Positions 34,706-50,963 of a stretch of 64,000 nt of DNA are shown here, piece after piece. Under the pieces are notes generated by a model that saw only the letters and a list, made by a program, of their open reading frames with translations, did not search any database and had not been told where the DNA came from. The stretch is from NCBI GenBank assembly GCA_963727775.1, contig CAVSHB010000001.1, positions 1,376,001 to 1,440,000 of the forward strand, read 5' to 3'. The first letter of the stretch is position 1, and every line of letters starts with the position of its first letter. This DNA comes from an uncultured Nitrospiraceae bacterium (GTDB lineage: Bacteria; Nitrospirota; Thermodesulfovibrionia; Thermodesulfovibrionales; SM23-35). The position numbers and the translations under genes are program-made.

Positions 34706-35672
34706 AATCATATCGACAGGCTCCTACCTTCCGGAAAAAATCCTTACAAATTATGATCTGGAAAAGATGGTTGACACCTCTGATGAATGGATAATAGAGA
34801 GGACAGGAATAAAAGAGAGAAGAATAGCCGATGAAGGTCAGACTGCGTCTGATCTTGCCTATGACGCTTCAAAGACTGCGCTGAAAAAAGCTGGTCTGAA
34901 AGCCGAAGACATCGACCTTATCATTGTCGCAACAGTTACGGGAGATATGCCTTTTCCTTCAACTGCATGTTTTCTGCAGGGGAAACTCGGTGCGGTAAAT
35001 GCAGCCGGTTTCGACGTAAATGCGGCCTGTTCTGGATTCCTTTATGGTCTTTATATCGCGGATGGGTTTATAAAATCCGGCATGCATAAAAAAATCCTTG
35101 TAGTTGGAACAGAGGTGTTGTCAAAGATCACGGATTGGGATGACAGGGCTACGTGTGTAATTTTCGGCGATGGGGCGGGCGCGGTTATTGTCGGACCTAC
35201 AGATGAAGACCGGGGGATACTTTCAGCGCATATAAACTGCGACGGAAGGATGTGGGATTTTATCCATATACCGGGAGGGGGATCGAAAAACCCGGCTTCT
35301 GTTGAATCCTTGGAACAAAGACTTCACTATATAAAGATGAAGGGAAATGAAACTTTCAAGGTCGCGGTAAGGACACTGGAAGAACTGGGCGTTAAAACCC
35401 TTGAAGAGAACAATTTGGATTCGACGAAGCTTTCACTCTTGGTACCGCATCAGGCGAACCTCAGGATAATACAGGCGACTGCCGACAGACTCAAACTGCC
35501 GATAGACAAAGTCTTCATAAATCTCGACAAATACGGAAATACATCCGCTGCATCCATACCGATAGCCCTCGATGAGGCCGTCACGTCCGGTAGGATCAAC
35601 GCAGGGGATTATGTACTCCTTGAAGCCTTCGGGGGTGGGCTTACGTGGGCATCTGCGCTAATAAAGTGGTAA
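34692..35672 (+). CDS. fabH: 3-oxoacyl-ACP synthase III
   Basis: AACSGF, PHQAN, GNTSAAS catalytic triad; GGGLTW. Confidence 0.97.
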   Translation: MLRSRIISTGSYLPEKILTNYDLEKMVDTSDEWIIERTGIKERRIADEGQTASDLAYDASKTALKKAGLKAEDIDLIIVATVTGDMPFPSTACFLQGKLGAVNAAGFDVNAACSGFLYGLYIADGFIKSGMHKKILVVGTEVLSKITDWDDRATCVIFGDGAGAVIVGPTDEDRGILSAHINCDGRMWDFIHIPGGGSKNPASVESLEQRLHYIKMKGNETFKVAVRTLEELGVKTLEENNLDSTKLSLLVPHQANLRIIQATADRLKLPIDKVFINLDKYGNTSAASIPIALDEAVTSGRINAGDYVLLEAFGGGLTWASALIKW

Positions 35673-37808
35673 ACTCCTGACCTCCGTATCAATGAGTTGT
35701 CTGACGACTGAGAGGAGCTCAAGCCTTTCAAACGGCTTTTTAACAACGGCATCTATCATTTTTCTTATGGTTATTCTTTCATTGCCGTAACCGGAAACTA
35801 CGATTATCTTAATATCCGGTTTTATTTCTTTCAGACGTCTTATCAGCTCGTCCCCTTCCATAAGCGGCATCATAATATCCGTTATCACAAGCTGGATCTT
35901 CGCGGAGAAATTGTTGAACATGTCTATTGCGGTCAGAGGATTATCAAAGGGCATAACATCATATCTACTGGTTTCAAGGATATCTTTAATGAGTTTGAGA
36001 ACATCTTTATCGTCGTCAATAACGAGAATGTTTTCATGTCCTTCCAGGGAAACGGGTTGAGACTTCGATAACTTATGGACGATTTTTTCGGAAGATGGTA
36101 TAAAAATATCAAAAGTTGTGCCTTTCCCGACTTCACTCCGGACAGAGATATACCCGTTATGGTCCTTAATGATGCCATAGACAGAAGCAAGTCCCAATCC
36201 CGTGCCTTTACCTTTTTCTTTCGTAGTGAAAAAAGGGTCGAATATCTTGTTCATTATATCCTTGTTTATGCCGCATCCCGTGTCTGATACCGTCAGAACA
36301 ACATATTTACCGGGTGCGACGCTGCCTGATATGTCGGGGTTTTCTTTTCCGATCTCGACGAGATTGGTCCGGACTGACAGGAGACCTCCATCGGGCATCG
36401 CATCTCTCGCATTTACCATGAGATTCATAATGACCCGTTCGAGCTGGTTAGGGTCGCCCTGGAGAGAAGGGAGATTGTTATATAAATCTATCTTCAGCCC
36501 TATCCTTTTATTGAGAACTCCCTCAAAAAGCTTGACGGAATCACTAACAATATCATTCAGATTCAGCGGCAGGACTTCATGCACCTCTCTCCTTGCGAAG
36601 CTCAGAAGTTTTGAGACCATGACACCGGCTTTACGGGAAGAGCTTTCAATATTTTTGACTCTTTGCCGTGAAGTTTCGTCTATGTTACTGTACTCAAGCA
36701 GCAGTTCCGAATAGCCTAAAATGGACGTCAATATATTATTGAAGTTATGCGCAATCCCACCCGCAAGCGCCCCTATGGAATCCATTTTCTGGGAATGCAT
36801 GAGTTGTTCCTGTATTTTTTTCTTTTCAGTAATATCCCTGTAGAATGACTGGATATACGTTTCACCTCCTATATCGATAGACTTTGCGCTTATCTCCAGG
36901 AGGGTTTTGCTGCCATCTTTTTTATAATGCTCCGTCTCAAAGATGAGTGTTTCGCCGTTAAGAATCCTTGACATCCTCTCGTCATGTTTTTCTTTATTAT
37001 TTCCTGCCTCAAGAAGGCCGGTATTGATTCCGATTAATGCATCGCAGTCAAAACCATGAATTTCGCACGCCTTTTGATTGACATTCATGATTACTCCGTT
37101 CTTGTCCAGTACCATGATGCCGTCCGTCGCATTATCAAAAATAGACCTGTGCCATTTTTCCGATATTGCAAGCTCTTTTGTCCTCTCCTGTACCAGTTCT
37201 TCAAGCTGGGTAGAATATGTCTCGAGTTCGCGTTTGTCTTTATCGAGCTCATACTGAAGACTTAACTCATTAGTCAGACTCCGCTGGCTTAGAAATCTCC
37301 AGATTAAGGCGATATTGACAATACTTATCAAAAACGCATTATTGCTTACAAACAATTGCATATTTGTAATACTATCAAAGATCAAAATCGGGAAAAGATA
37401 AATGGAATAAGTAATTGCTACAAGTGTGAGCGACATTTTGAAAGGAAGGGGAAGGACACCCAACAAAAATACAACGGTGATTATCATTCCTGCATAGTAA
37501 GTTGATTGGTGGCCTCCATATGAGAGTATCATAAGCTCAACAGTTGAAGATGTAATGATGACAGTTAATATCAATAAGATATTCTGAGAAAGCTTGCGTT
37601 TACTTTTGCGGTTGAACAAAAACATAATAATCATCATAGTCGTACAAATTGATCGGTAGGTAAAAAATCTGACAAAATTATGCGGGGTTACAAAATAGTC
37701 TAAAGCACTTAATGCAAGAAAAATAAAAGAGGCCGTTACCAAACCGAAAGACAACCAATATTTGGTCAACTTAAAAAGCTCTTGTTCTAAATACTGATTT
37801 TTGTCCAT
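35658..37808 (-). CDS. Membrane-bound PAS hybrid sensor histidine kinase/receiver
   Basis: 5-6 N-terminal TM helices, PAS, AGGIAHNFNN H-box, NARDAM, DTGCG, GTGLGL, C-terminal REC (TDIMMP). Confidence 0.93.
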   Translation of the reverse strand: MDKNQYLEQELFKLTKYWLSFGLVTASFIFLALSALDYFVTPHNFVRFFTYRSICTTMMIIMFLFNRKSKRKLSQNILLILTVIITSSTVELMILSYGGHQSTYYAGMIITVVFLLGVLPLPFKMSLTLVAITYSIYLFPILIFDSITNMQLFVSNNAFLISIVNIALIWRFLSQRSLTNELSLQYELDKDKRELETYSTQLEELVQERTKELAISEKWHRSIFDNATDGIMVLDKNGVIMNVNQKACEIHGFDCDALIGINTGLLEAGNNKEKHDERMSRILNGETLIFETEHYKKDGSKTLLEISAKSIDIGGETYIQSFYRDITEKKKIQEQLMHSQKMDSIGALAGGIAHNFNNILTSILGYSELLLEYSNIDETSRQRVKNIESSSRKAGVMVSKLLSFARREVHEVLPLNLNDIVSDSVKLFEGVLNKRIGLKIDLYNNLPSLQGDPNQLERVIMNLMVNARDAMPDGGLLSVRTNLVEIGKENPDISGSVAPGKYVVLTVSDTGCGINKDIMNKIFDPFFTTKEKGKGTGLGLASVYGIIKDHNGYISVRSEVGKGTTFDIFIPSSEKIVHKLSKSQPVSLEGHENILVIDDDKDVLKLIKDILETSRYDVMPFDNPLTAIDMFNNFSAKIQLVITDIMMPLMEGDELIRRLKEIKPDIKIIVVSGYGNERITIRKMIDAVVKKPFERLELLSVVRQLIDTEVRSLPLY

Positions 37809-37899
37809 TGCCCGCCTTATTGATCGACGTTAGAATATCATTATTTTACCAAATAACTTTTTAAAATATAGAAACATAATTTCGTATCAATAATATGCT

Positions 37900-38160
37900 C
37901 TAAAGTAAAGCCTTGTTTTTTTGTTCAATCAGTTCTTTGGTCAGATCGATTACCTGTTTCACCGTAGTAATCCCGGGTATATCCTCATCTCGTATGGATA
38001 TTTTATATTTCTTTTCAATTGCCACTACTATCTCAATGGACTTGATTGAGTCAATATCTAAATCGTCGGCTAATTTTGTGTCCGATGACATTTCATCTTC
38101 ATCTGTCCCTGAAATCTCTGAGATTATTGCCGTAATTTCTTTTCCTATGTTGTCAGACAT
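37900..38160 (-). CDS. Acyl carrier protein (cluster-specific)
   Basis: Acidic 86 aa; DLDIDSIKSIE phosphopantetheine Ser motif. Confidence 0.93.
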   Translation of the reverse strand: MSDNIGKEITAIISEISGTDEDEMSSDTKLADDLDIDSIKSIEIVVAIEKKYKISIRDEDIPGITTVKQVIDLTKELIEQKNKALL

Positions 38161-38162
38161 GT

Positions 38163-39404
38163 CTAATTTTCCTCCCTATCATATATTTTTTTTAAAACCA
38201 TTGAAGCATTATTACCTCCAAAAGCATATGAATTATTCAAAGCAATATGAACGGCGCTTTTTCTGGCCTCATTCGGAACGCAGTCGATGTCACATTCGGG
38301 ATCAAGAGTCTCAAAATTGATTGTGGGCGGGATCACGTTGTTCTTTACAACCAAAGCGCAGGCTATTGCCTCGAGCGCAGAGGCTGCGCCCATTGCATGA
38401 CCTATCATGGATTTGATGGAGCTTACCGGTACTTTCCTGTAAAGCGTACCAAATACCTCTTTAATTGCCGCGCATTCCGCCCTGTCATTTGCCGGAGTTC
38501 CCGTTCCGTGTGCGCTGATATAGCCGATATCCTTTATTTGGATATCCGAATATCTAATCGCTTTCCTCATACATTCTGAAATGCCTTCAACAGAAGGATG
38601 GGTCATATGACTTGCATCGCAGCTGAGCCCGTAGCCGAGTATCTCGGCATAGATTTGGGCCTTCCTTTCTAAAGCGTGGTTTAAAGATTCCAAGACCAGG
38701 ACGCCTGAGCCTTCTGCCGGCATCATCCCTTTCCTGTTTTTATCGAAGGGCTGACACTTTTCCGGTGCCACCGCTCCAAGTTGATTGAAGCCGGTAAATT
38801 CAATCCGGGACAAAGCATCTGAGGCGCCTGCCAGTACAATATCCGCTCTGTTCAATTTGATCATGTCATAGCCGTAACATATAGCATAATTACCCGCTGC
38901 GCAGGCTGTGGAAAACATAATATTCGGACCGTGTAATTGAAATTCCGAGGCTATGCGTGAAGGAGTTTCATGCGCCGGAAGCTGAGATACCAGTCCTTTA
39001 CCGATATTGCCATATTCTTTATTTACTAATAAGTCATCAATTGCTTCAATAGTCTGGACCGCGCCGAGCGTAGTGCCGAAAGAAACACCTACCTCGCTTT
39101 CGGCTAACTCTTGTTCTGTCAAAGCAGCGTCTTCAATCGCGAGTTTTGCTGACGCTATTGCCATTTGCGTTGAACGGCCCATGAACGGTATACGTTCAAA
39201 CGGAATAAAATCCTCGGGGTGAAATATCTTTACTTCACCGCCATAATGAGTGAAATGCGCTGATGTGTCAAAAGATGAAATCTTGCTTATGCCTGATTTC
39301 CCGTTCAAGAGATTATTCCAGAAATCTTTTTTACCGATGCCTATTGAAGATACAACGCCAATCCCTGTTATAACGGTCCTATGATTGTATGACGTTACTT
39401 TCAT
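38163..39404 (-). CDS. Beta-ketoacyl-ACP synthase II-like (active KS)
   Basis: STACAAG (Cys), SAHGTGT (His), KSMIGH (His), SYAFGGNN. Confidence 0.93.
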   Translation of the reverse strand: MKVTSYNHRTVITGIGVVSSIGIGKKDFWNNLLNGKSGISKISSFDTSAHFTHYGGEVKIFHPEDFIPFERIPFMGRSTQMAIASAKLAIEDAALTEQELAESEVGVSFGTTLGAVQTIEAIDDLLVNKEYGNIGKGLVSQLPAHETPSRIASEFQLHGPNIMFSTACAAGNYAICYGYDMIKLNRADIVLAGASDALSRIEFTGFNQLGAVAPEKCQPFDKNRKGMMPAEGSGVLVLESLNHALERKAQIYAEILGYGLSCDASHMTHPSVEGISECMRKAIRYSDIQIKDIGYISAHGTGTPANDRAECAAIKEVFGTLYRKVPVSSIKSMIGHAMGAASALEAIACALVVKNNVIPPTINFETLDPECDIDCVPNEARKSAVHIALNNSYAFGGNNASMVLKKIYDREEN

Positions 39405-39414
39405 GATAAATATG

Positions 39415-40275
39415 CTAATTCTTGGTACACAGGAATCTCCCGTATTTTAAATAGTCATAGTGGGTCTTAATCATGGCCTTTAAATAATGATGGGCCTTAG
39501 CAAAGTATTCTTCATAACCGATCTTTATATAATAAGACTGCGCCATCTCCAGTTCCCTTAAACGGGCGCGCAATCCACGATCGACGATATCAGTCGTATC
39601 TTCTGCATGAAGAACAACAAACCCGGCTTTTTCCAATATTTTTTGTGTTTCTTCAATGCTATTCTGGAACCAGACGCCTTCTGCGTAAATCCCAGGAAAA
39701 TCGCCGCCGGCATCGTTAAGATCACTTTTTTCACCTTTGAGCCATTCATGGAACCCCATAAGACCGCCTTTTTTCAAAGCTTTGAATAGTCCGGCCAATG
39801 CAGTTTTCTGGTCTCTCCAGTGACACATCGTTTCATTATGAAAAATTTTATCAAACATGTCTTCTGCAAAATCCAATTTATGGACGTCTCTGACTTTTCT
39901 CTCGATTAAATGGTCCACTCCTTCAAGGCGATCACAATCAACCGCTTTATTGATCTGGTCCGGATTAATGTCAAAAGCGATGATTCTGCAACCGCGTGTC
40001 TTGGCGATAAGCCTTGTAGGCGCCCCATTGCCGCAGCCGGCGTCTAATAATAAATCATCTTTGTTAATGTTCATCATATTGATCAATTTGAGGACCTCGG
40101 ATTGCAGATGATGCGATAAGCTCTCTATGTCGAGGATGTTTCTGTTTGTGCTTTTGGGGTCGATTCCAAGGACATGGTATAACTTTTGAAGTTCTTCCGC
40201 CGTATAGACCATAAAACCGGTATTGTACGAGTAGCTTTTAAATAGATTCTTTGTGACATTCTCTTCATATGACAT
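39415..40275 (-). CDS. Class I SAM-dependent methyltransferase
   Basis: LLDAGCGNG motif I, FDKIF, LKKGG. Confidence 0.88.
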   Translation of the reverse strand: MSYEENVTKNLFKSYSYNTGFMVYTAEELQKLYHVLGIDPKSTNRNILDIESLSHHLQSEVLKLINMMNINKDDLLLDAGCGNGAPTRLIAKTRGCRIIAFDINPDQINKAVDCDRLEGVDHLIERKVRDVHKLDFAEDMFDKIFHNETMCHWRDQKTALAGLFKALKKGGLMGFHEWLKGEKSDLNDAGGDFPGIYAEGVWFQNSIEETQKILEKAGFVVLHAEDTTDIVDRGLRARLRELEMAQSYYIKIGYEEYFAKAHHYLKAMIKTHYDYLKYGRFLCTKN

Positions 40276-40295
40276 TTTTGCCTCCGTGATATGGA

Positions 40296-40730
40296 TTAAT
40301 CTTTTACACTAAAAACGAGCTCTGCCTCTGAAACCTTTTTTTCATCAACGAATGCCTCCGCAGATATATAAGCGCCGTTGGGCAGAGATTTAATGTTCAC
40401 AACCTTTATCCTTAACTGGTCTCCCGGCACGACGGGATGGAGAAACCTGGCCTTAACAGATCCGAAATAATAAAGAGGATTTTCAGCGCCTTTTCCTTTC
40501 TTCTCAGTGGCGAAAAGAACGATGGAGGTCTGGGCCATTGCCTCTATTATTGCGGCCCCCGGAAAAACGGCTTTTTCAGGGAAATGCCCGAGAAAGAAAA
40601 TATCGTTGCCGGAAATATTTTTTACAGCCGATGCTTCTTTCCCAGGCTCTAAATTCAGGACTTTGTCTATCATAATAAACGGGAAGCGCTGGGGTATCAG
40701 CTTCTTTATCTCTTCAAAATCAAGTTGCAT
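40296..40730 (-). CDS. 3-hydroxyacyl-ACP dehydratase, FabZ family
   Basis: PQRFPFIMID, GHFP, PGAAIIEAMAQ, VVPGD; GGAGG RBS before ATG 40730. Confidence 0.92.
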   Translation of the reverse strand: MQLDFEEIKKLIPQRFPFIMIDKVLNLEPGKEASAVKNISGNDIFFLGHFPEKAVFPGAAIIEAMAQTSIVLFATEKKGKGAENPLYYFGSVKARFLHPVVPGDQLRIKVVNIKSLPNGAYISAEAFVDEKKVSEAELVFSVKD

Positions 40731-40797
40731 AATTTGCCCTCCAAAAAACCTGACGCAAGACGCAGGATGCACGTGCAATCATGATGCATTATGGTAT

Positions 40798-42045
40798 TTA
40801 TTGTCTTGTATTCTGTTCATACTTTCGGATTATAACAGCAGAGTTGTTTCCGTATGGATCGGATGATATAACCAGTGCATTCTTGATATCTTTCCGTCTC
40901 GGTTGATTCGGAACGTAATCGAGATCGCAATTAAGGTCTTTTTCCTTATAGTTCACTGTTGGCGGAATATATCCCTCTGTTATGGCGCGTAGGGCGGCTG
41001 CAACTGATAAAGCCCCGGAAGCAGAGAAAGATTCACCCACCATAGATTTTATTGAACTTACCGGTATATCACGAGAATGTTCCCCGAAGACATCCTTTAT
41101 GACCTTCGTTTCCATCATGTCCAATCCTTTAGTTGAGTTTGCGGTGGAAGATATATATTCCACTGCTTCGGGAGGCAGAGAGGCATCCTTTAAGGCAAGA
41201 GTTATGGCTTTTTTCAGGCCATTCCCTGTGTAATTAAAATAGCAGTCTGTTCCCGGATCAAAGGAATTACCATGCCCGGCGATTTTGGCCAGGATGTTTG
41301 CTCCCCGAATCAAGGCATGTCCCTCTTCTTCGAGAACAATAATTGCTGCGCCTTCGGAAAAGATGGCACCATTCCTACGTGCATCAAAGGGGCAGCACAC
41401 AGGTTCGGAGCCATCGGACCCTGAAAGATACCCAAGTTTATGTAAAAATAGGAAAGTTTCCTCACATAATTCTTCAACCCCGCCGGCAAGAACTGCGCTG
41501 ACCCTATTGAGTCGAATGAAGTCTGCGGCGTATGAGAGGGCATCAAGGCTTGCGCAGAAACCGGTTGATACGGTTGTGTTGAACCCCTTTATTTTGAAAC
41601 GGATAGAGACCTGGCTTGCCGGAGAATTAAGCACTGTATTGGGAAAATGTGATGGATTGACATACTTAGGTCCTTCAATAAGACCTTCACGGTCAAACTG
41701 AGAAATACTATGAAGACTTCCGAATGTTGAGCCGACAGAGACACCTATGGAACCCGCATTCTCTTCAGTGATCTGGAGCCCGGCGTCATCAATAGCAAGC
41801 TTTGCGGCTGAACAGATCAATTTCGTGCTTCTGTCAAGCGTGCGAAGTCCTTTTTTGCCAAGAAATGCCGCCGGGTCAAAACGAGTTATCTCCCCCGCGA
41901 TATGGACATTAAAATCTGCTGTATCAAAGAGATTTATTGTTCCGAATCCTGTCTCTCCTCTGAATAAGCCTCCACAGTATTCTTCTTTGCCTATGCCTAC
42001 AGGTGAAAGGACACCTATGCCTGTCACAACAACATTTTTCTTCAT
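40798..42045 (-). CDS. Ketosynthase-like chain-length factor (catalytically degenerate KS)
   Basis: KS fold but STGFCAS, ISSTANST and KSMVGE replace STAC, AHGTGT and KSxxGH. Confidence 0.85.
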   Translation of the reverse strand: MKKNVVVTGIGVLSPVGIGKEEYCGGLFRGETGFGTINLFDTADFNVHIAGEITRFDPAAFLGKKGLRTLDRSTKLICSAAKLAIDDAGLQITEENAGSIGVSVGSTFGSLHSISQFDREGLIEGPKYVNPSHFPNTVLNSPASQVSIRFKIKGFNTTVSTGFCASLDALSYAADFIRLNRVSAVLAGGVEELCEETFLFLHKLGYLSGSDGSEPVCCPFDARRNGAIFSEGAAIIVLEEEGHALIRGANILAKIAGHGNSFDPGTDCYFNYTGNGLKKAITLALKDASLPPEAVEYISSTANSTKGLDMMETKVIKDVFGEHSRDIPVSSIKSMVGESFSASGALSVAAALRAITEGYIPPTVNYKEKDLNCDLDYVPNQPRRKDIKNALVISSDPYGNNSAVIIRKYEQNTRQ

Positions 42046-42047
42046 TC

Positions 42048-43322
42048 CTATTTATTGACCAGATAGAAAACTATTATGCCGGATTCGTCACGAATCTCGG
42101 ATATTGAAGAGTAAGGAATTTGAGATTCATGGAAAATATCCATGAAATCTTCTTCAGTTCGCTGTAGGAACCCGTCCCAGTCAACGATCCAGCGGTATTG
42201 CTGAGAGCTATATCGTGCAGCATCTTTAAAGGATGTGATAAGCAAACCTCCCGGATTTAGAAGATTGTATAATGCATTAAACAAATTTGATAGAAAATCA
42301 GATTGCAGGTAGTCAAAAAAACCTACGCTGTAAATGATATCCTGTTTGCCGAACTCGCTCATATTTAACTCATGATCGAACATCCTGACAGCGTTATATT
42401 TACGGACATTAACCAGATTTGATATGGTCGGTGAGATGTTCGTATAGGACAGGCGATTTGCGGCAAAAGCAAGGGCATCGTTATCTAAATCAATACAGGT
42501 AAATTTTGCTCCGGAATTTTCTATTTCAGGAGCCAATTCAAAGACCTCACGGCATGAGCCGCAGGCTATATTCAAGACGGACGGTTTTTGTCTCTTAAGC
42601 AGCTCGCCTTTTAATATTTCTTTAAGTTTTTTTATTCTATTCCTTACCCCTAAAGCCAGTTGGGCATTTAAACCATATAAATCCAGATAATACCCTATCC
42701 CATCCGACAACGGAGTATTTCTGTACATATTTTCAAGCATTTTATAGTCACCCTGATATCCCTGCGGCCATGTTCGCGCCCGGTTCATAAAGTAGCTTTT
42801 CGATAAGATAGCATTGGTTTTTTCACGGAACCTGGTCTGCGCATCTCGCACGATATCTTTGTCCTTCACCTCTGTCTCAAAAACCTTGCATGCTTCACAT
42901 ACATCATCAACAGCGGTTCTTGTTATCTCAAATATTTCTTCAGAGACTTCCGTTGCACCGTAACATTTTTTTTCTATTTCTTCAAGCTGTTTATTAAATA
43001 TCTCTGTTGCTTCGTCGAGCGCCTTTATATGTTTTCCGTCAAGCTCGATACCTGCCTTATAAGTATCGTCAAGCTTTGTGCACCATCTCACAAAACCTGC
43101 CTTTTCTTCTATCCCGCCATCGAACCACAACATATTGCCTGTCTCCAAAGGGTAGTCTGTCTGGATACAAATTCCTGCTTCACTGATATTGACAGCCTTA
43201 CCTTTCAGCTGCAACCATTTGTGTTCCTTTGATCCGGAAACGCTCAATGAATAGTCAATGGTCTGTGAATAAGGTTTCCTTTCGTATCTTCTTGCGTTAA
43301 GCATAGTTGATGCGTTCTGCAT
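42048..43322 (-). CDS. PilZ-fused SAM methyltransferase with PhcB-like motifs
   Basis: N-terminal RRYER/NISEAG PilZ; PQGYQGDY, GVRNR, VLNIACGSCRE, DIIYSVGFFDYL, LLNPGG. Confidence 0.8.
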   Translation of the reverse strand: MQNASTMLNARRYERKPYSQTIDYSLSVSGSKEHKWLQLKGKAVNISEAGICIQTDYPLETGNMLWFDGGIEEKAGFVRWCTKLDDTYKAGIELDGKHIKALDEATEIFNKQLEEIEKKCYGATEVSEEIFEITRTAVDDVCEACKVFETEVKDKDIVRDAQTRFREKTNAILSKSYFMNRARTWPQGYQGDYKMLENMYRNTPLSDGIGYYLDLYGLNAQLALGVRNRIKKLKEILKGELLKRQKPSVLNIACGSCREVFELAPEIENSGAKFTCIDLDNDALAFAANRLSYTNISPTISNLVNVRKYNAVRMFDHELNMSEFGKQDIIYSVGFFDYLQSDFLSNLFNALYNLLNPGGLLITSFKDAARYSSQQYRWIVDWDGFLQRTEEDFMDIFHESQIPYSSISEIRDESGIIVFYLVNK

Positions 43323-43417
43323 AACTTTCCTCCCTTTTTTAATTGTTGTGATAATTGACTTTTACAGTCGCTTTCCCACTTTTTTTTTAATTTTAAATCT
43401 ATATTTCTCCAAATGTC

Positions 43418-43461
43418 TGTCGGGAGAGTTTGACTTTTTTTGTAGGGGAAGTTTGATTTTT
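43418..43461 (-). promoter_or_regulatory. Tandem 21-bp direct repeat, candidate regulator binding sites
   Basis: TGTCGGGAGAGTTTGACTTTT (43418) and TGTAGGGGAAGTTTGATTTTT (43441), 17/21 identical, 23-bp period, ~100 bp upstream of the cluster start. Confidence 0.5.
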
Positions 43462-43477: not shown

Positions 43478-44030
43478 TTATGGTAAATCTTTTCTATTAT
43501 TATTTTTTGATGAAGCTTTGTGCGCTGATGAATGCGATCTCCTGAAAATCTTTTCGATTTTGTCTCTGTAAGCCGTTGAGATCAATATAATTAAAATTGC
43601 GATTCCCAGGAGAACTGAAAACCTGTAATATTGATGACGTCGAATATAATCTACCGCCGAGTGTCAATAAAACTGTGCCCAGAAACCTTCCGGTAGTGCT
43701 GATCACCAGAAATTCTTTTAAGCTCAGATGGCCAAGTCCGAGGATATAGCAAAGGTAATCCTTAAGGAAAGCCGGGTATCAGGAAGAGTAAAAATACCAG
43801 GAAAGCCCCTTTATGGTGAAGAAGATAATCATACCGGTATAAAACCGAGAAAAGAGAGGGGACCGAGAGAATTCAGGAAAGCGGTCATTTTTTCCCTGTT
43901 GAGGAAAAAAGAGATCATGCCTGTTTTATACAGGATGAAGGTTGAACCTGCAACAATCGAAACGAGAATTGCTAATTTAAGCCATGTCTTATTTCGAAAT
44001 TTTCCTATGGGTATTCTCCTCTTTCATTAC
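43478..44030 (-). pseudogene. TVP38/TMEM64 (VTT/DedA-family) membrane protein pseudogene
   Basis: Fragments WLKLAILVSIVAG...FLNSLGPLSFLGF and FLLFLIPGFP/KDYLCYILGL...GRFLG in different frames; central part apparently missing. Confidence 0.8.
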
Positions 44031-46235: not shown

Positions 46236-46493
46236 AGTATACTAAAGTATAGGTATTATGAAAGCAAAATGCAATTCCAGTCCGCCATCTTAGTCAGACT
46301 GACATCCTATGCGGACCGATCCTTGTGAAAAGGGATTACTATTAGTAATAGTAGGGCAATTTCCATAAGTAACGTATTCATATTTATCTATCCATGATCA
46401 GAAAGAAAAGATTCAGTTAATATGCAATGGCATATTAAATATGCTATTATTTTAATATATGTAAGGTTAAGCAAGAAAGGTAAGGTGATTGTT

Positions 46494-46748
46494 ATGACGA
46501 CGGCAGCAGTAAAAATTACTAAGAAGGGGCAAGTAACTATCCCAAAGGAAATTCGTGAAAAACTGAAGACCAGCACGATCTACTTTGATATAGTGGATGA
46601 CACGATTATGGTCAAAGCGGTAAGAGACGCCGCTGGCTCCTTGCAATCATATGCAAGAAATGTGAAGCCGGGTACGCCGATGAAACAGATAAAAGAAAAA
46701 GCTTGGGAGGCCGTGGCACATGAAAAAGCCAGAAAAAAGTCTTCCTGA
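46494..46748 (+). CDS. vapB: AbrB/MazE-fold antitoxin (VapB)
   Basis: KITKKGQVTIPKEIREKL; overlaps the PIN gene. Confidence 0.9.
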   Translation: MTTAAVKITKKGQVTIPKEIREKLKTSTIYFDIVDDTIMVKAVRDAAGSLQSYARNVKPGTPMKQIKEKAWEAVAHEKARKKSS

Positions 46749-47142
46749 TACAAATGCTATTATCCGATATCTTACGAAAGACGATGAGGTATTGTACTCA
46801 AAGGCCAAAGAATTTTTCGATAGGGTGAAAAATGGAAGCTGCAAGGTGATCATCGTAGAAAGCGTTATCGCTGAATGTATTTATGTGCTCACAAAGGTCT
46901 ACAAAGTTCCGAAAAATGAGGCAGCGGCAAGCCTTAAGGATATTTTACATTATAAGGGAGTCGCCAATGAGGACCAAAAAGAACTTATTCGTGCACTGAC
47001 TCTTTTCCAGGACCGTAACATTGATATCGTCGATTGCATCTTGTGCGTAAAGTCCACGAATCCTGATCTGAGTCTCTTTTCTTTTGACGACGACCTCAAT
47101 AAGATAAACGCTTCTCTATCCGTATCCCAACGTGAAAATTAA
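46720..47142 (+). CDS. vapC: PIN-domain toxin (VapC)
   Basis: DTNAIIRYL, VIAEC, DIVDC, FSFDDDL acidic PIN residues. Confidence 0.9.
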   Translation: MKKPEKSLPDTNAIIRYLTKDDEVLYSKAKEFFDRVKNGSCKVIIVESVIAECIYVLTKVYKVPKNEAAASLKDILHYKGVANEDQKELIRALTLFQDRNIDIVDCILCVKSTNPDLSLFSFDDDLNKINASLSVSQREN

Positions 47143-47389: not shown

Positions 47390-50300
47390 TTATTCAGGGA
47401 TTGGCAAAGTGAAATAGAATGTCGAGCCTTTGCCGGGCTCCGACTCCACCCAGATGCGGCCTCCGTGCCGTTCCACTATCTTCTGGCATATGGCAAGCCC
47501 TATGCCGGTTCCATGATATTCGGACTTGCTGTGCAACCGGTGAAATACAGCGAATATTTTCTCAGAGTCTTCAGGATCTATACCAATCCCATTATCGTGA
47601 ACCGAAAAGTTATACTCCGATCCCTCTTTTTTCGCTGATATATGTATTTTGGGAGTATCTTTGCAAAACTTGATCGCATTCCCTATTAAGTTCTGGAATA
47701 GACTCGTCAGTTGAGTGGCATCTCCTTGTACCGCTGGAAGCGGTTCATCCAAAGTGATATCTGCGCTCTTTTCGCTGACGGCATTACTTAAGTTGAAAAT
47801 TGCCTTTGTTACACATAGCGACGTATTTGTTTCCTTAAAGGAATTGTTATCGCTCCCCACCTTCGCATATTCAAGGACGTCGAGAATAAGTGCCTGCATA
47901 TCTTTGACACCGGTCGTGATAAAGTGCATAAACTCATCCGCCTTATTGTCAAGCTTGCCACGGTATCTCCTTGCCAGCAGTTGTACGAAACCTTCAACGT
48001 TCCTGAGCGGCGACTGCAGGTCATGGGACGCAATATATGCAAACTGTTGCAAGTCTGAATTGGAGCGTTTGAGTTCCTCTGTGAGCTTATGCAATGCTTC
48101 CTCCGCCTTTGTGCGAGCAGCTCTCGTTCGCATGACTTCGATTCCATACGACAGGTCGTCTGCGAGTTCGGTCAATAGTTTCACTTCGGCCTCCGAGAAT
48201 GGATCGGCTTCAGGGGAATAAATCGTAAGTGAGCCGAATACTTTGTTCTCAGACCATAGGGGGAATACGATTGAAGATGCATAGCCGCGCCGTCTCGCCT
48301 GTTCGCGCCAAGGCGCGAAGGCCGGGTCGTTTAACATATTGCGACATATGGAGACTTTGCCTGTGCGGATAGCCGTGCCTGTCGGTCCACGGCCCCGCTC
48401 TCTGTCTGCCCATGTAAGATTCAATGTTTCAAGATAGCCGTCCTCGAAGCCTGCGTAAGCCACGGGCCGCACTGATTTATCCTCGTCATTTTCCGCGAAA
48501 CCTATCCAGACCATGCTATAGCCGCAGTCCTCCACTATAATCCTGCAAACGTCCTCCAAGAACTCTTCTTCGTCTTTGGCCCTGATTACAGCTTGACTAC
48601 TGTCACTCAGAGCCTTCAGAGTTTTGTTCAACCTTAGGAGATCTGCCTCAGCCCGCTTGCGCTCGGTAATATCTTCGGTGAAAATGACAATGCCGCCAAG
48701 TTCCCCAGAGCCAGTGTGCCAGGGTCGCACTTCCCAACAAAGCCATTGTACTGATCCGTCTGCACGCTCGAAAGGGTCTTCATCAGCGCGCACGACTTCT
48801 CCGCCCAGCCCACGGCGATGGACTTCTTTCCAGTACTCGGGGATTTCAGGAAAGACCTCGTAATGGGAAATGCCAAGCAGGTTGCGCTCTTCGAGACCGT
48901 AGTCTGCAAGCCAGCGACGACTCACGCTCAGATAGCGCATCTCGCGATCAAACATTGCCAGAGAAGCGGGTGCGTGGTCGATGAATAGGCGCAGCCGCTC
49001 CTCGCTCTCGCGAAGCGCATCCTCTGCCCGCCTACGCGCGGTGATGTCGTGGGCAACATGGACCGATCCGATCATGCGCCTTTTCTCATCGTACAATGGG
49101 GTAGTGCTGACTACAAAGTCACCCCCAAGGAGGTCCTCGTGCACTTCCTCAATATGTTCTACTCCATCAGCCAACGTTCTCGAATGAGGACAGAATGATG
49201 GCGGGGCCGATGTGCCATGAACAGCCTTGTAGCAATGAAGGCCTACACACTCCTCGGGCTTCAGACCCAAACGCTGTGCCATTGCCTGATTCACCCGTAT
49301 AACCCGATGCTGATTGTCGAGGATTGCGATCATGTCCGGCACGCTGTCGAATGTCCGCTCCCATTCCTCCTTGGCCCGGATAATCGCTTCCTCCGCCTTT
49401 TTGCGTTCGGAGATATCGCGAATCGCAGTGTGACGGCTCCCACTGCCCGGGGACGCGGTCCGCCCGTTTGCCTCAACAGCGATCCGCGTGCCGTCCTTGC
49501 GGAGCATGGTGTGTTCGATCAACGACTCCCTGCCCTGCCAGATATTCGCCATCACCCGCTCACGATCCTCGGGGATAATAAGACTGGCAATCTCCAACCC
49601 CTTCAGCTCTGACACGGTGTAGCCCATCATCTGGGCAAACTGCTTGTTGCAGTCCACAATCCGGCCCGCTTCGCTTTCGACAATGCCTTCAAAGGTCACC
49701 TCCGCAAACACCGCCAAACGTGCCTGACTGTCGTGCAAGGCCGCTTCACACTCATAGGCAGTTGCCTTGTCCCGGCTCCGCCGGTAGAGTTCGGAGACCC
49801 CGCTCATAAATAGGCCCATGCCGGTAAAAATGACGAGCCCCAAGCGGTCAGCTGGCGAAGCAATAGCAAACCCTTCCGGAGGCAGAATGTAGTATGCCGT
49901 CGTCAAGCCCGCTAATGCCGTCGCCAGCAAGCCAGGCCCAAAGCCAGCCAGCAAAGCCACCGCCATTACCGCCGGATAGAACGTGAGGTAGGCAGGTAAG
50001 CCGGGGCCGATCGATCCATGCCGTCAGCGCGAGACGCAACCCCATGGCCGCACACGCAGCTACCACCGACATCGTATAGCGCAAAGCCAACTGGAGGGGC
50101 GGCTGATTCCGGATCGCCAGCAGCAACTCGTTCCTTCGCCACTCTTCTTCCACTGCCGCTAACGTAATTCTCCGGACACCGCTTTCGCGCGCTGCCGACA
50201 GCACCGCTATGCACATATAGACCGTGCCGAAGAATTGCGTAAATCGTGCGACCCATTGGAGGGGAGAGTTCTTCACTGCAATCGCCATGGACCCGCTCAA

Positions 50301-50963
50301 ACCGGTTGCAAGCAGAACTAGTCCCAGCGCATACCAGTAGAGGAATGGCGACGCACTGCGGCGGTTTGTCTGCCAAAGAAGTCCGGCCGTGAGGAGGAAG
50401 AGTGCTACGGCCATGCTCACCACTATGCTTCGCAGCAGAGTACCGCCCTGTCCGTCGATGAAGAATACCGGCATCCAACCCGCGAAGGCGCCCCAGATGA
50501 CCAGTCCCATCGCCGCTACACCGCCCGCATAAGTAATCACCAACCACGTGGCGGAATGCCTCAGATGGATCTTGAGCTGGGAAGTGATTGAAACGCCGAT
50601 AAAATGGCATATTGCCCCCAGCAAGGCGGATGTATTGTAGATCGCAAAAGCCGTGTCTGAGCTTCGAGTGAATCCGATGGGCATAGCCGTCACGCCGATA
50701 TCCATCATTAGCATGCCACAACCAAGCATCAGGACGCTGGGTTGCCCGTTAGCCAGGAAACTGCGTGCTGCTGGAATAACAATGAATGCAACGCCGAGGG
50801 CCACGGAACCATAATGGACGAGCCAGTACAAAAGCGGCAAAGACCAAGCGATACGCACGTCCACCACCCATAGAGCGGTCATTATCGTCAGCAGCAGTGG
50901 GATCGGCAACCAAGCCAGCCGGTGCCAACGACTGGGTACCTGAGGCTGTGTCTCGCCCTTCAT
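47390..50963 (-). pseudogene. Multi-TM (MASE-like) + DUF4118 + 3xPAS + GAF histidine kinase split by a 4-bp duplication
   Basis: GATCGATC at 50009-50016; removing one GATC fuses the two ORFs (..[23 protein letters not shown]..) into 1189 aa; kinase core [26 protein letters not shown]. Confidence 0.85.

Follow-up and report, generated by a model that had tools for sequence, protein, structure and literature searches.

A phc-like operon of Nitrospirota with an intervening ketosynthase cassette and a putative variable tailoring-sensor block

The phc system (phcBSRQ) of the Ralstonia solanacearum complex and Cupriavidus is reported to signal with methyl 3-hydroxymyristate or methyl 3-hydroxypalmitate, and both the co-evolution of PhcB with PhcS and balancing selection at phcBS have been reported. 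A second reference point is Cluster I of the anammox bacteria, described as the genes KustE3603-3608 that encode amxACP, amxFabZ, amxFabF2, amxFabFmut, a phytoene-dehydrogenase-like protein and a B12 radical S-adenosylmethionine (SAM) enzyme (bioRxiv 10.64898/2026.05.19.726425). Cluster I was proposed for ladderane lipids, a role for which no experimental demonstration is reported, and similar fatty acid synthesis (FAS) clusters were noted in some deltaproteobacteria (PMC2649909). In the variable region of the agr locus, signal-shaping genes and the sensor are described as linked internally and unlinked from their flanks (PMC8768832). The Dickeya Vfm system, as far as described, comprises 26 genes including an ABC exporter and employs an amino-acid plus fatty-acid signal (PMC7912708). 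In this study, an operon located at positions 35658-43322 on the minus strand of the window, a stretch of 64,000 nucleotides from contig CAVSHB010000001.1 of an uncultured Nitrospiraceae bacterium, was compared with these systems. The operon probably represents a phcB-phcS-like gene pair that encloses a ketosynthase/chain-length-factor (KS/CLF) acyl cassette and that would constitute a self-contained signalling unit, with a dedicated acyl methyl-ester signal and a matched receptor. Since the sensing part of the receptor varies in step with the final tailoring gene of the cassette, operons of this type likely make and detect lineage-specific fatty-acid esters. Signalling of the phc type is a known kind of system; what is new is the variable tailoring-sensor block in a phc-like operon with a cassette. 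No paper describing this gene combination was found among those listed by a search of openly accessible literature; the literature compared also included PMC10139942, PMC7694676, PMC11960443, PMC13220807, PMC6580516 and 10.1101/2021.11.05.467447.

The original prediction, made from the sequence alone, had described seven mostly near-abutting genes of the same strand and had interpreted them as a candidate lipid-signal system. The observation was confirmed, and the interpretation is supported with the corrections given below. The window contains seven co-oriented, closely spaced open reading frames (ORFs), separated in the order from the first methyltransferase gene to the kinase gene by 2, 67, 20, 10, 2 and 91 bp, and their domain calls by Pfam and NCBIfam match those of the prediction. 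According to the names deposited at NCBI, the close relatives belong to Nitrospirota/Thermodesulfovibrionales. A tblastn search of the own genome with the methyltransferase, the acyl carrier protein (ACP) and the membrane domain of the kinase revealed no second match for any of them. A promoter scan remained at chance level, with 20 hits versus 20.2 expected.

The first gene (42048-43322) was assigned by Pfam and by reciprocal profiles to a PilZ domain fused to a PhcB-family class I SAM methyltransferase, the predicted signal synthase. The PhcB motifs that the prediction had named were found as GYQGD, VRNRI, ACGSCRE and YSVGFFDYL, and relatives with 68-74% identity carry the JGI name 3-hydroxypalmitic acid methyl ester biosynthesis protein. 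The proteins P0446 (named PhcB) and P0399 (named PhcS) were used as phc proxies; they were reached via locus L091, a four-gene phcBSRQ-like operon of Paraburkholderia graminis found by plasmid search, whose methyltransferase is 68-69% identical to Cupriavidus proteins, one such cluster including P0446. A profile of 105 orthologous methyltransferase domains matched P0446 at E 2.9e-24, with 4.2 bits for the best of 200 shuffled sequences and E 0.008 for the next protein of the own genome. The reverse profile, made of 14 PhcB-like proteins, placed the window gene at the top of 3006 ORFs of its own genome (E 4e-15, next 0.23). The proposed grouping with PhcB therefore holds at the level of the family by reciprocal profiles, and it was corrected on the methyltransferase tree, where the window protein belongs to a subfamily distinct from the PhcB clade of the Burkholderiales. 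NCBIfam gave no PhcB model match for the window methyltransferase or for the proxy, and a sequence search of the PDB with the methyltransferase yielded no match at a useful E. In the structural model (predicted local distance difference test, pLDDT, 89), the best fold match was an uncharacterised Bordetella protein (Z 20.8, root mean square deviation (rmsd) 2.9, 247 aligned residues), tied with SgvM (Z 20.3); these modelled similarities would be compatible with more than one reaction. The PilZ domain at residues ~11-93 scored under the Pfam cut-off (E 9e-4). Its motifs for binding of cyclic diguanosine monophosphate (c-di-GMP), RxxxR and D/NxSxxG, are intact as RRYER and NISEAG and are both kept in 31/33 PilZ-bearing orthologues, which suggests a possible c-di-GMP control of the methyltransferase. 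This domain distinguishes the protein from PhcB, the N-termini of which score < 1 bit on the PilZ profile.

PhcB-like domains were also observed in other settings. A modular polyketide synthase (PKS) encoded on an Enterobacter ludwigii plasmid (L092:9589-12726) ends with KS, ACP and a PhcB-like methyltransferase, and this last domain outscores PhcB on the methyltransferase profile. A 2514-aa PKS in L113 has KS, ketoreductase (KR) and PhcB-like matches, so that PhcB-like domains may cap polyketide chains. Another synthase-methyltransferase pairing occurs in L112, where a distant PhcB-like gene follows a gene for a 1124-aa protein with a FabH-like match. In L094:10125-12366, two PhcB-like genes, one broken and the other intact, are located in tandem ahead of a kinase gene, and about 140 plasmid records from Rhizobium and others contain distant PhcB-family methyltransferases.

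The last gene (35658-37808) encodes a whole hybrid kinase with PAS, HisKA, HATPase and receiver (REC) domains. Its six-helix membrane sensor domain (37224-37808, residues 1-195) was recognized as PhcS-homologous by a profile match and represents the variable part of the putative specificity block; the cytoplasmic part (35658-37223) was assigned by Pfam and by the residues H354 of HisKA and D644 of the receiver. Both residues are present in the window, and H354 occurs in 69/69 covering rows. A profile of 72 membrane domains matched PhcS P0399 (E 4e-20, 70 bits) and the L091 kinase (E 1.5e-23, 81 bits), with 7.7 bits for the best of 400 shuffled sequences, and the residues D37, R52, S102, Y105 and G107 are common to the window domain and PhcS. 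The relationship to PhcS that had been proposed for the transmembrane (TM) region was thus recovered by profile, and the predicted five to six TM segments appeared as six helices in the model (pLDDT 92). The modelled fold resembles the 6TM anchors of ImcA and an adenylyl cyclase (Z 16-17.2, rmsd 2.9, 194 aligned residues), a design that a Vibrio quorum receptor is reported to have in common with such anchors (PMC4821796). The MASE8 family (PF20968) scored 20 bits for the window domain, under the Pfam cut-off of 26.2, and 17.6 bits for the PhcS-like protein of L091; MASE8 was the top match in the Atlas at 0.96, and a search with this family found no match in the own genome nor in any of 14 controls. 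Foldseek with the membrane domain gave no match at E <= 0.001, and a search of the plasmid collection with the window membrane domain gave no match either. The operon resembles phc in that a PhcB-family methyltransferase gene lies upstream of a gene for a kinase with a homologous membrane domain. It differs from phc by identities of about 25% and a separate subfamily, by the dedicated KS/CLF/ACP cassette between the two genes, and by a hybrid PAS-REC kinase that has no adjacent phcR/phcQ and whose specificity would follow the tailoring enzyme.

The conservation of this arrangement was determined in 70 genome loci, comprising the window and 37, 18 and 14 further loci picked by matches, with 11 distant or sister loci left out. 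The methyltransferase matched 63/201 genomes of the class, and 38 places, spread over 37 genomes, scored under 1e-80. With the CLF, matches at 1e-85 were obtained in 49/301 genomes of the phylum, including 30/64 in a family of another class; three CLF matches at 39-40% look like ordinary FabF. A methyltransferase gene followed by a PhcS-like kinase gene was found in 55/70 genome loci, directly adjacent in 21 and with KS/CLF/ACP between them in 34, and the full gene order recurs in the family of the other class. Of the remaining 15/70 loci, most are cut off by the edge of the contig or locus; in three the unit breaks off behind the CLF gene, and one is frameshifted. Among the 80 metagenome loci, the 47 of at least 5 kb were inspected and both ends of the unit were seen in 24. 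The synteny of kinase and cassette expected by the prediction consequently recurs in 34/70 genome loci and 24/47 metagenome loci. The proposed seven-gene unit stood with respect to its core, conserved as methyltransferase-(KR)-CLF-(DH)-KS-ACP-(CrtI-like)-kinase, where DH denotes a dehydratase; it did not stand for the second methyltransferase (MT2), which is optional (4/34 genome cassettes). Other optional genes encode the KR, the DH, radical SAM enzymes and a CrtI-like flavoenzyme, the latter present in 28/34 genome cassettes; the cassette of L159 has both CrtI-like and B12 radical SAM genes. In L119, L121, L122 and L123, a cassette without an ACP gene is followed by two or three tandem kinase genes with PhcS-type membrane domains.

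On the methyltransferase tree (91 rows, FastTree), the cassette-bearing loci form one clade (0.975) nested among cassette-free loci, and the CLF tree (93 rows) likewise unites the 29 matching CLFs in a single clade (0.80), which lies within a larger sister-cassette group. These nested single clades suggest one insertion of the cassette into an existing synthase-sensor pair. A search with the cassette KS in two genomes of the adjacent type yielded only FabF matches of 41-42%.

Co-variation among the genes of the unit was analysed in 34 loci, obtained from 39 loci with all six parts by dereplication at 90% methyltransferase identity. The sensor distances correlated with those of the CrtI-like flavoenzyme (rho 0.48, partial rho 0.47, permutation p 0.001); the values for the sensor with its own kinase core, the methyltransferase, the CLF and the KS were 0.11, 0.09, 0.11 and 0.13, respectively, and the cytoplasmic kinase core follows the methyltransferase across genomes (rho 0.77). 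Sensor and flavoenzyme have a common nearest neighbour in 22/34 loci (null mean 1.0, maximum 7 in 5000), and 15 of these 22 neighbours (10 distinct pairs) differ from the methyltransferase and kinase partners alike, distant lineages sharing the block. The median identities in 16 close pairs were 81% for the methyltransferase, 82% for the CLF and 87% for the kinase core, as well as 56% for the flavoenzyme and 53% for the sensor. The identity jumps near kinase residue 200, and its drop begins within the first 40-120 residues of the flavoenzyme. An 18-row clade of the methyltransferase tree is recovered by the kinase core with a support of 99 and rejected by the sensor domain (40 rows, approximately unbiased (AU) test, p 6.6e-78). 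A direct example is provided by L031 and L126, with 89% methyltransferase identity, MT2 swapped for the flavoenzyme and a sensor identity of 35%. The four sensors nearest to that of the window, out of 53, all come from flavoenzyme-less loci. Where no cassette is present (18 loci), sensor and methyltransferase vary together (rho 0.53), in agreement with what is reported for PhcB/PhcS, and sensor identity is kept at 88% and 93% in the two close cassette-free pairs.

Such co-variation of sensor and tailoring gene is the pattern that receptor-ligand matching would predict. As judged from these sequence comparisons, the tailoring gene and the sensor domain represent a putative agr-like specificity block, which is new in this setting, and lineages appear to change their dialect by joint exchange of the two. 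The likeness to the staphylococcal agr locus (agrBDC) is evolutionary only and concerns the joint variable block; no homology is claimed, and the predicted acyl ester differs from the peptide signal of agr. It is very unlikely that the cassette is merely linked to the synthase-sensor pair, with a methyltransferase that uses FAS-derived acids and a flavoenzyme-sensor correlation caused by hitchhiking. In favour of mere linkage, 21/55 linked loci work without a cassette, the two co-varying genes physically adjoin and three loci are split; yet in two classes the pair still encloses the cassette that a single insertion is inferred to have brought in, the sensor no longer follows the methyltransferase where a cassette is present (0.09 vs 0.53), and the segments flanking the block, ACP and PAS, show no such correlation with the sensor in the 24 control loci (0.15 and -0.01).

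The hypervariability of the block also bears on the purpose of the signal. A diffusible ester bound by the kinase might serve kin recognition, antagonism or product feedback instead of density sensing, and this is where the four loci with tandem extra sensor paralogues, which could hear other dialects, and the genomes that hold both cassette-type and adjacent-type loci would fit. We consider this unlikely, because the characterised homologues PhcB and PhcS are a density-sensing pair, balancing selection is reported at phcBS too, and the unit contains no exporter or resistance gene.

The genes of the cassette itself point to the anammox bacteria. The active KS (38163-39404) has the triad C168/H299/H336, which is kept in 54/54 orthologues, and its best PDB match is 9s5h_B with 473 bits, followed by the ishigamide KS entry 6kxd with 338 bits. 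In the inactive, chain-length-factor-like ketosynthase (40798-42045), the triad is lost and replaced by F163/N303/E338, kept as F in 51, N in 53 and E in 53 of 54 orthologues; its best PDB match is 9s5h_C with 387 bits vs 257 for the next. The CLF residues F134 and V138, invariant in 54/54, fall in the alignment on the tunnel region that was probed in the anammox protein. As a separate observation, Cys164, one position past the lost catalytic site, is invariant in 54/54 orthologues and variable in sister CLFs. The FabZ-type DH (40296-40730), above the NCBIfam FabZ cut-off, starts at an ATG provided with a GGAGG site, whereas 40778 is the start given in the ORF list; H65/E79 are kept in 47/47 orthologues and the best PDB match is 8AYD, the Kuenenia amxFabZ. 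The dedicated ACP (37900-38160) carries S38 in a DSI(K) motif, kept in 50/50 orthologues, and is best matched by 7qv0_D, the Scalindua amxACP. The active KS, the degenerate KS and the discrete ACP of the original prediction are accordingly borne out by residues conserved across orthologues. The entries 8AYD and 7QV0 were confirmed as anammox proteins, and we infer that 9S5H/9S5I are the (heterodimer) structures of the 2026 preprint, the main text of which does not contain these codes. By analogy with the anammox pair, KS and CLF presumably form a heterodimer, and on these matches the cassette can be taken to belong with the anammox Cluster I KS/CLF family. The highly reducing type II PKS of ishigamide (Iga11/Iga12) is similar in combining a KS/CLF pair with an ACP, a KR and a DH of its own; it differs from the present system, in which PhcB-like release and a co-encoded receptor are predicted. 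A cispentacin-type PKS, indicated by weak NCBIfam matches below cut-off, was rejected on account of the intact KS triad and the far stronger anammox-type matches.

MT2 (39415-40275), a second SAM methyltransferase and optional tailoring enzyme, belongs to a tight family of 93 proteins with 45-97% identity and occurs in 1/24 metagenome cassettes in addition to the genome cassettes counted above. Its PDB matches are weak (best E 3e-14), and C-methylation or cyclopropanation is a guess at its reaction. The window cassette needs ketoreduction in trans; a FabG-like match of 47% in the own genome adjoins the housekeeping FabF. The window cluster contains no CrtI-like flavoenzyme, the best own-genome match being unlinked at 23%, and no radical SAM gene, with no own-genome match at E 1e-8.

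The resemblance to Cluster I includes the closest solved relatives of KS, CLF, DH and ACP, the CLF triad lost in the same way, and the CrtI-like and B12 radical SAM genes of orthologous cassettes, putative counterparts of KustE3607/3608. Cluster I differs in being described as six genes without a PhcB-like enzyme or sensor, and the window differs from it in lacking the flavoenzyme and radical SAM genes. This resemblance is the basis for another explanation, in which the product of the operon would be a polyunsaturated, methylated or ladderane-like lipid with a specialised role in the membrane. The kinase would then monitor this lipid in the membrane of its own cell and not a shared signal. Besides the proposed role of Cluster I in ladderane lipids, the convergent plsX and fabH genes beside the window kinase gene, the end of which abuts fabH, are in line with a membrane lipid. 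This neighbourhood is found only in part of the loci, however, namely those closest to the window; the unit lacks an acyltransferase, and a chain capped as a methyl ester could no longer be passed on to glycerol. A membrane lipid also gives no reason for repeated swaps of sensor and tailoring gene between operons otherwise 81-87% identical. Furthermore, the anammox link is not special to the window variant, since the sister-type CLF of L187 scores higher than the window CLF on the anammox-type chain (406.8 vs 387.5 bits). We therefore regard a membrane lipid as quite improbable and retain the methyl-ester signal as the probable product of the operon.

In the proposed mechanism, the KS/CLF heterodimer would extend a chain bound to the dedicated ACP, and housekeeping enzymes would provide malonyl loading and, in this genome, also ketoreduction. 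The DH would then act, and double bonds would stay in the chain because the cluster contains no enoyl reductase. Tailoring would depend on the lineage, with the CrtI-like flavoenzyme in most cassettes, MT2 in the window and a radical SAM enzyme in few. The chain would leave the ACP and be O-methylated by the PhcB-like enzyme, possibly under c-di-GMP control via PilZ. The diffusible ester could then partition into the membrane, bind the 6TM domain and shift kinase phosphorylation toward a phosphorelay. The sensing of a biosynthetic cluster's product by a co-encoded two-component kinase is, by description, a likeness to Dickeya Vfm.

Several points weigh against this reading. The identity of the window proteins is 26% to the PhcB proxy and 23% to the PhcS proxy, neither proxy being an R. 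solanacearum sequence, and PhcB forms a separate clade on the methyltransferase tree. PhcB is described as acting on free cognate fatty acids (PMC7912708) and the window cluster contains no thioesterase gene, so that the methyl-ester release step has a gap, although a PhcB-like domain terminates the KS-ACP module of the Enterobacter plasmid PKS mentioned above. The anammox KS/CLF pair is reported to have made acetoacetyl-ACP in vitro and no longer elongation product (bioRxiv 10.64898/2026.05.19.726425). No PhcR/PhcQ-type receiver gene and no cognate response regulator gene adjoin the window kinase gene, the kinase having its own receiver domain. The block test bears on the window only indirectly, because the window has no flavoenzyme; when the 53 sensors are ordered by identity to that of the window, the other four flavoenzyme-less loci come at ranks 22, 34, 44 and 46, and L079 lacks a flavoenzyme, yet its sensor is close to that of L071. 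Since the flavoenzyme and sensor genes are neighbours, co-transfer by linkage could give part of the correlation; linkage and shared ancestry, with kin that are not independent, inflate the statistics, and recombination is not separated from convergence. The three loci that break after the CLF gene come from one genus, the split loci comprising one genome with the rest on another contig, one without a sensor match and one without KS and sensor matches. In addition, four metagenome loci have no ACP gene.

Related cassettes were found beyond the phc-like pair. A genome scan yielded 80 named loci, 61 of which are of the sister type, mostly from Omnitrophota and other Thermodesulfovibrionia. Among the 41 sister loci with the KS in view, 26 have a HisKA_7TM-type kinase and none has a PhcS-type domain, and the methyltransferase profile had no match in 5/5 sister-type genomes. 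Examples of neighbouring genes, restricted to those checked by Pfam/NCBIfam, encode a thioester reductase (L197), an acyl-ACP reductase-like protein (L272), an alpha/beta hydrolase (L220), a LuxD-like acyltransferase-methyltransferase fusion (L210) and a distant PhcB-like enzyme (L219). In about ten Omnitrophota loci, CLF-KR-DH is all that is left of the cassette, and the surrounding genes are unrelated; such Omnitrophota-type loci without KS or ACP nearby are L204, L205, L207, L208, L212, L218, L230, L245 and L247, and those inspected are located after riboflavin genes. A wider reading, which we hold tentatively and with somewhat less confidence than an even chance would warrant, is that KS/CLF cassettes like that of anammox Cluster I represent a widespread, undescribed family of lipid-signal factories. 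One of them would have been captured inside the Nitrospirota phcB-phcS pair and would diversify by swaps of tailoring genes and receptors; the versions of Omnitrophota and other Thermodesulfovibrionia would combine 7TM sensors with reductases, hydrolases or a second KS, and the anammox 'ladderane' cluster would have its origin in a signal cluster or still act as one.

If the signalling interpretation is true, a polymorphic small-molecule signalling system is added to Nitrospirota, and the operons provide a natural library of matched tailoring-enzyme/receptor pairs with which the discrimination of lipids by a PhcS-type membrane domain could be worked out. With respect to ladderane biosynthesis, the 2026 preprint calls its candidate cluster unique to ladderane producers (bioRxiv 10.64898/2026.05.19.726425), yet both Nitrospirota and Omnitrophota have close relatives of the Cluster I core, located next to genes for sensors and release enzymes. 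Expression of anammox genes in E. coli is reported to have left the ladderane pathway unresolved (PMC4790861). The products of the present cassettes may be easier to detect than the anammox ones, because a candidate release/capping enzyme is on board.

Further features were noted in the surroundings of the operon. Just upstream of it, a broken VTT/DedA-family gene is located at 43538-43996 on the minus strand, recovered as four tblastn pieces with 63-89% identity to the intact gene of L031. A toxin-antitoxin-like pair of the AbrB/MazE-PIN type is present at 46422-47142. The adjoining region 47390-50963 is GC-rich (0.56 at 48001-50000 vs about 0.44) and contains a PAS/GAF kinase gene that is apparently split, with overlapping ORFs.

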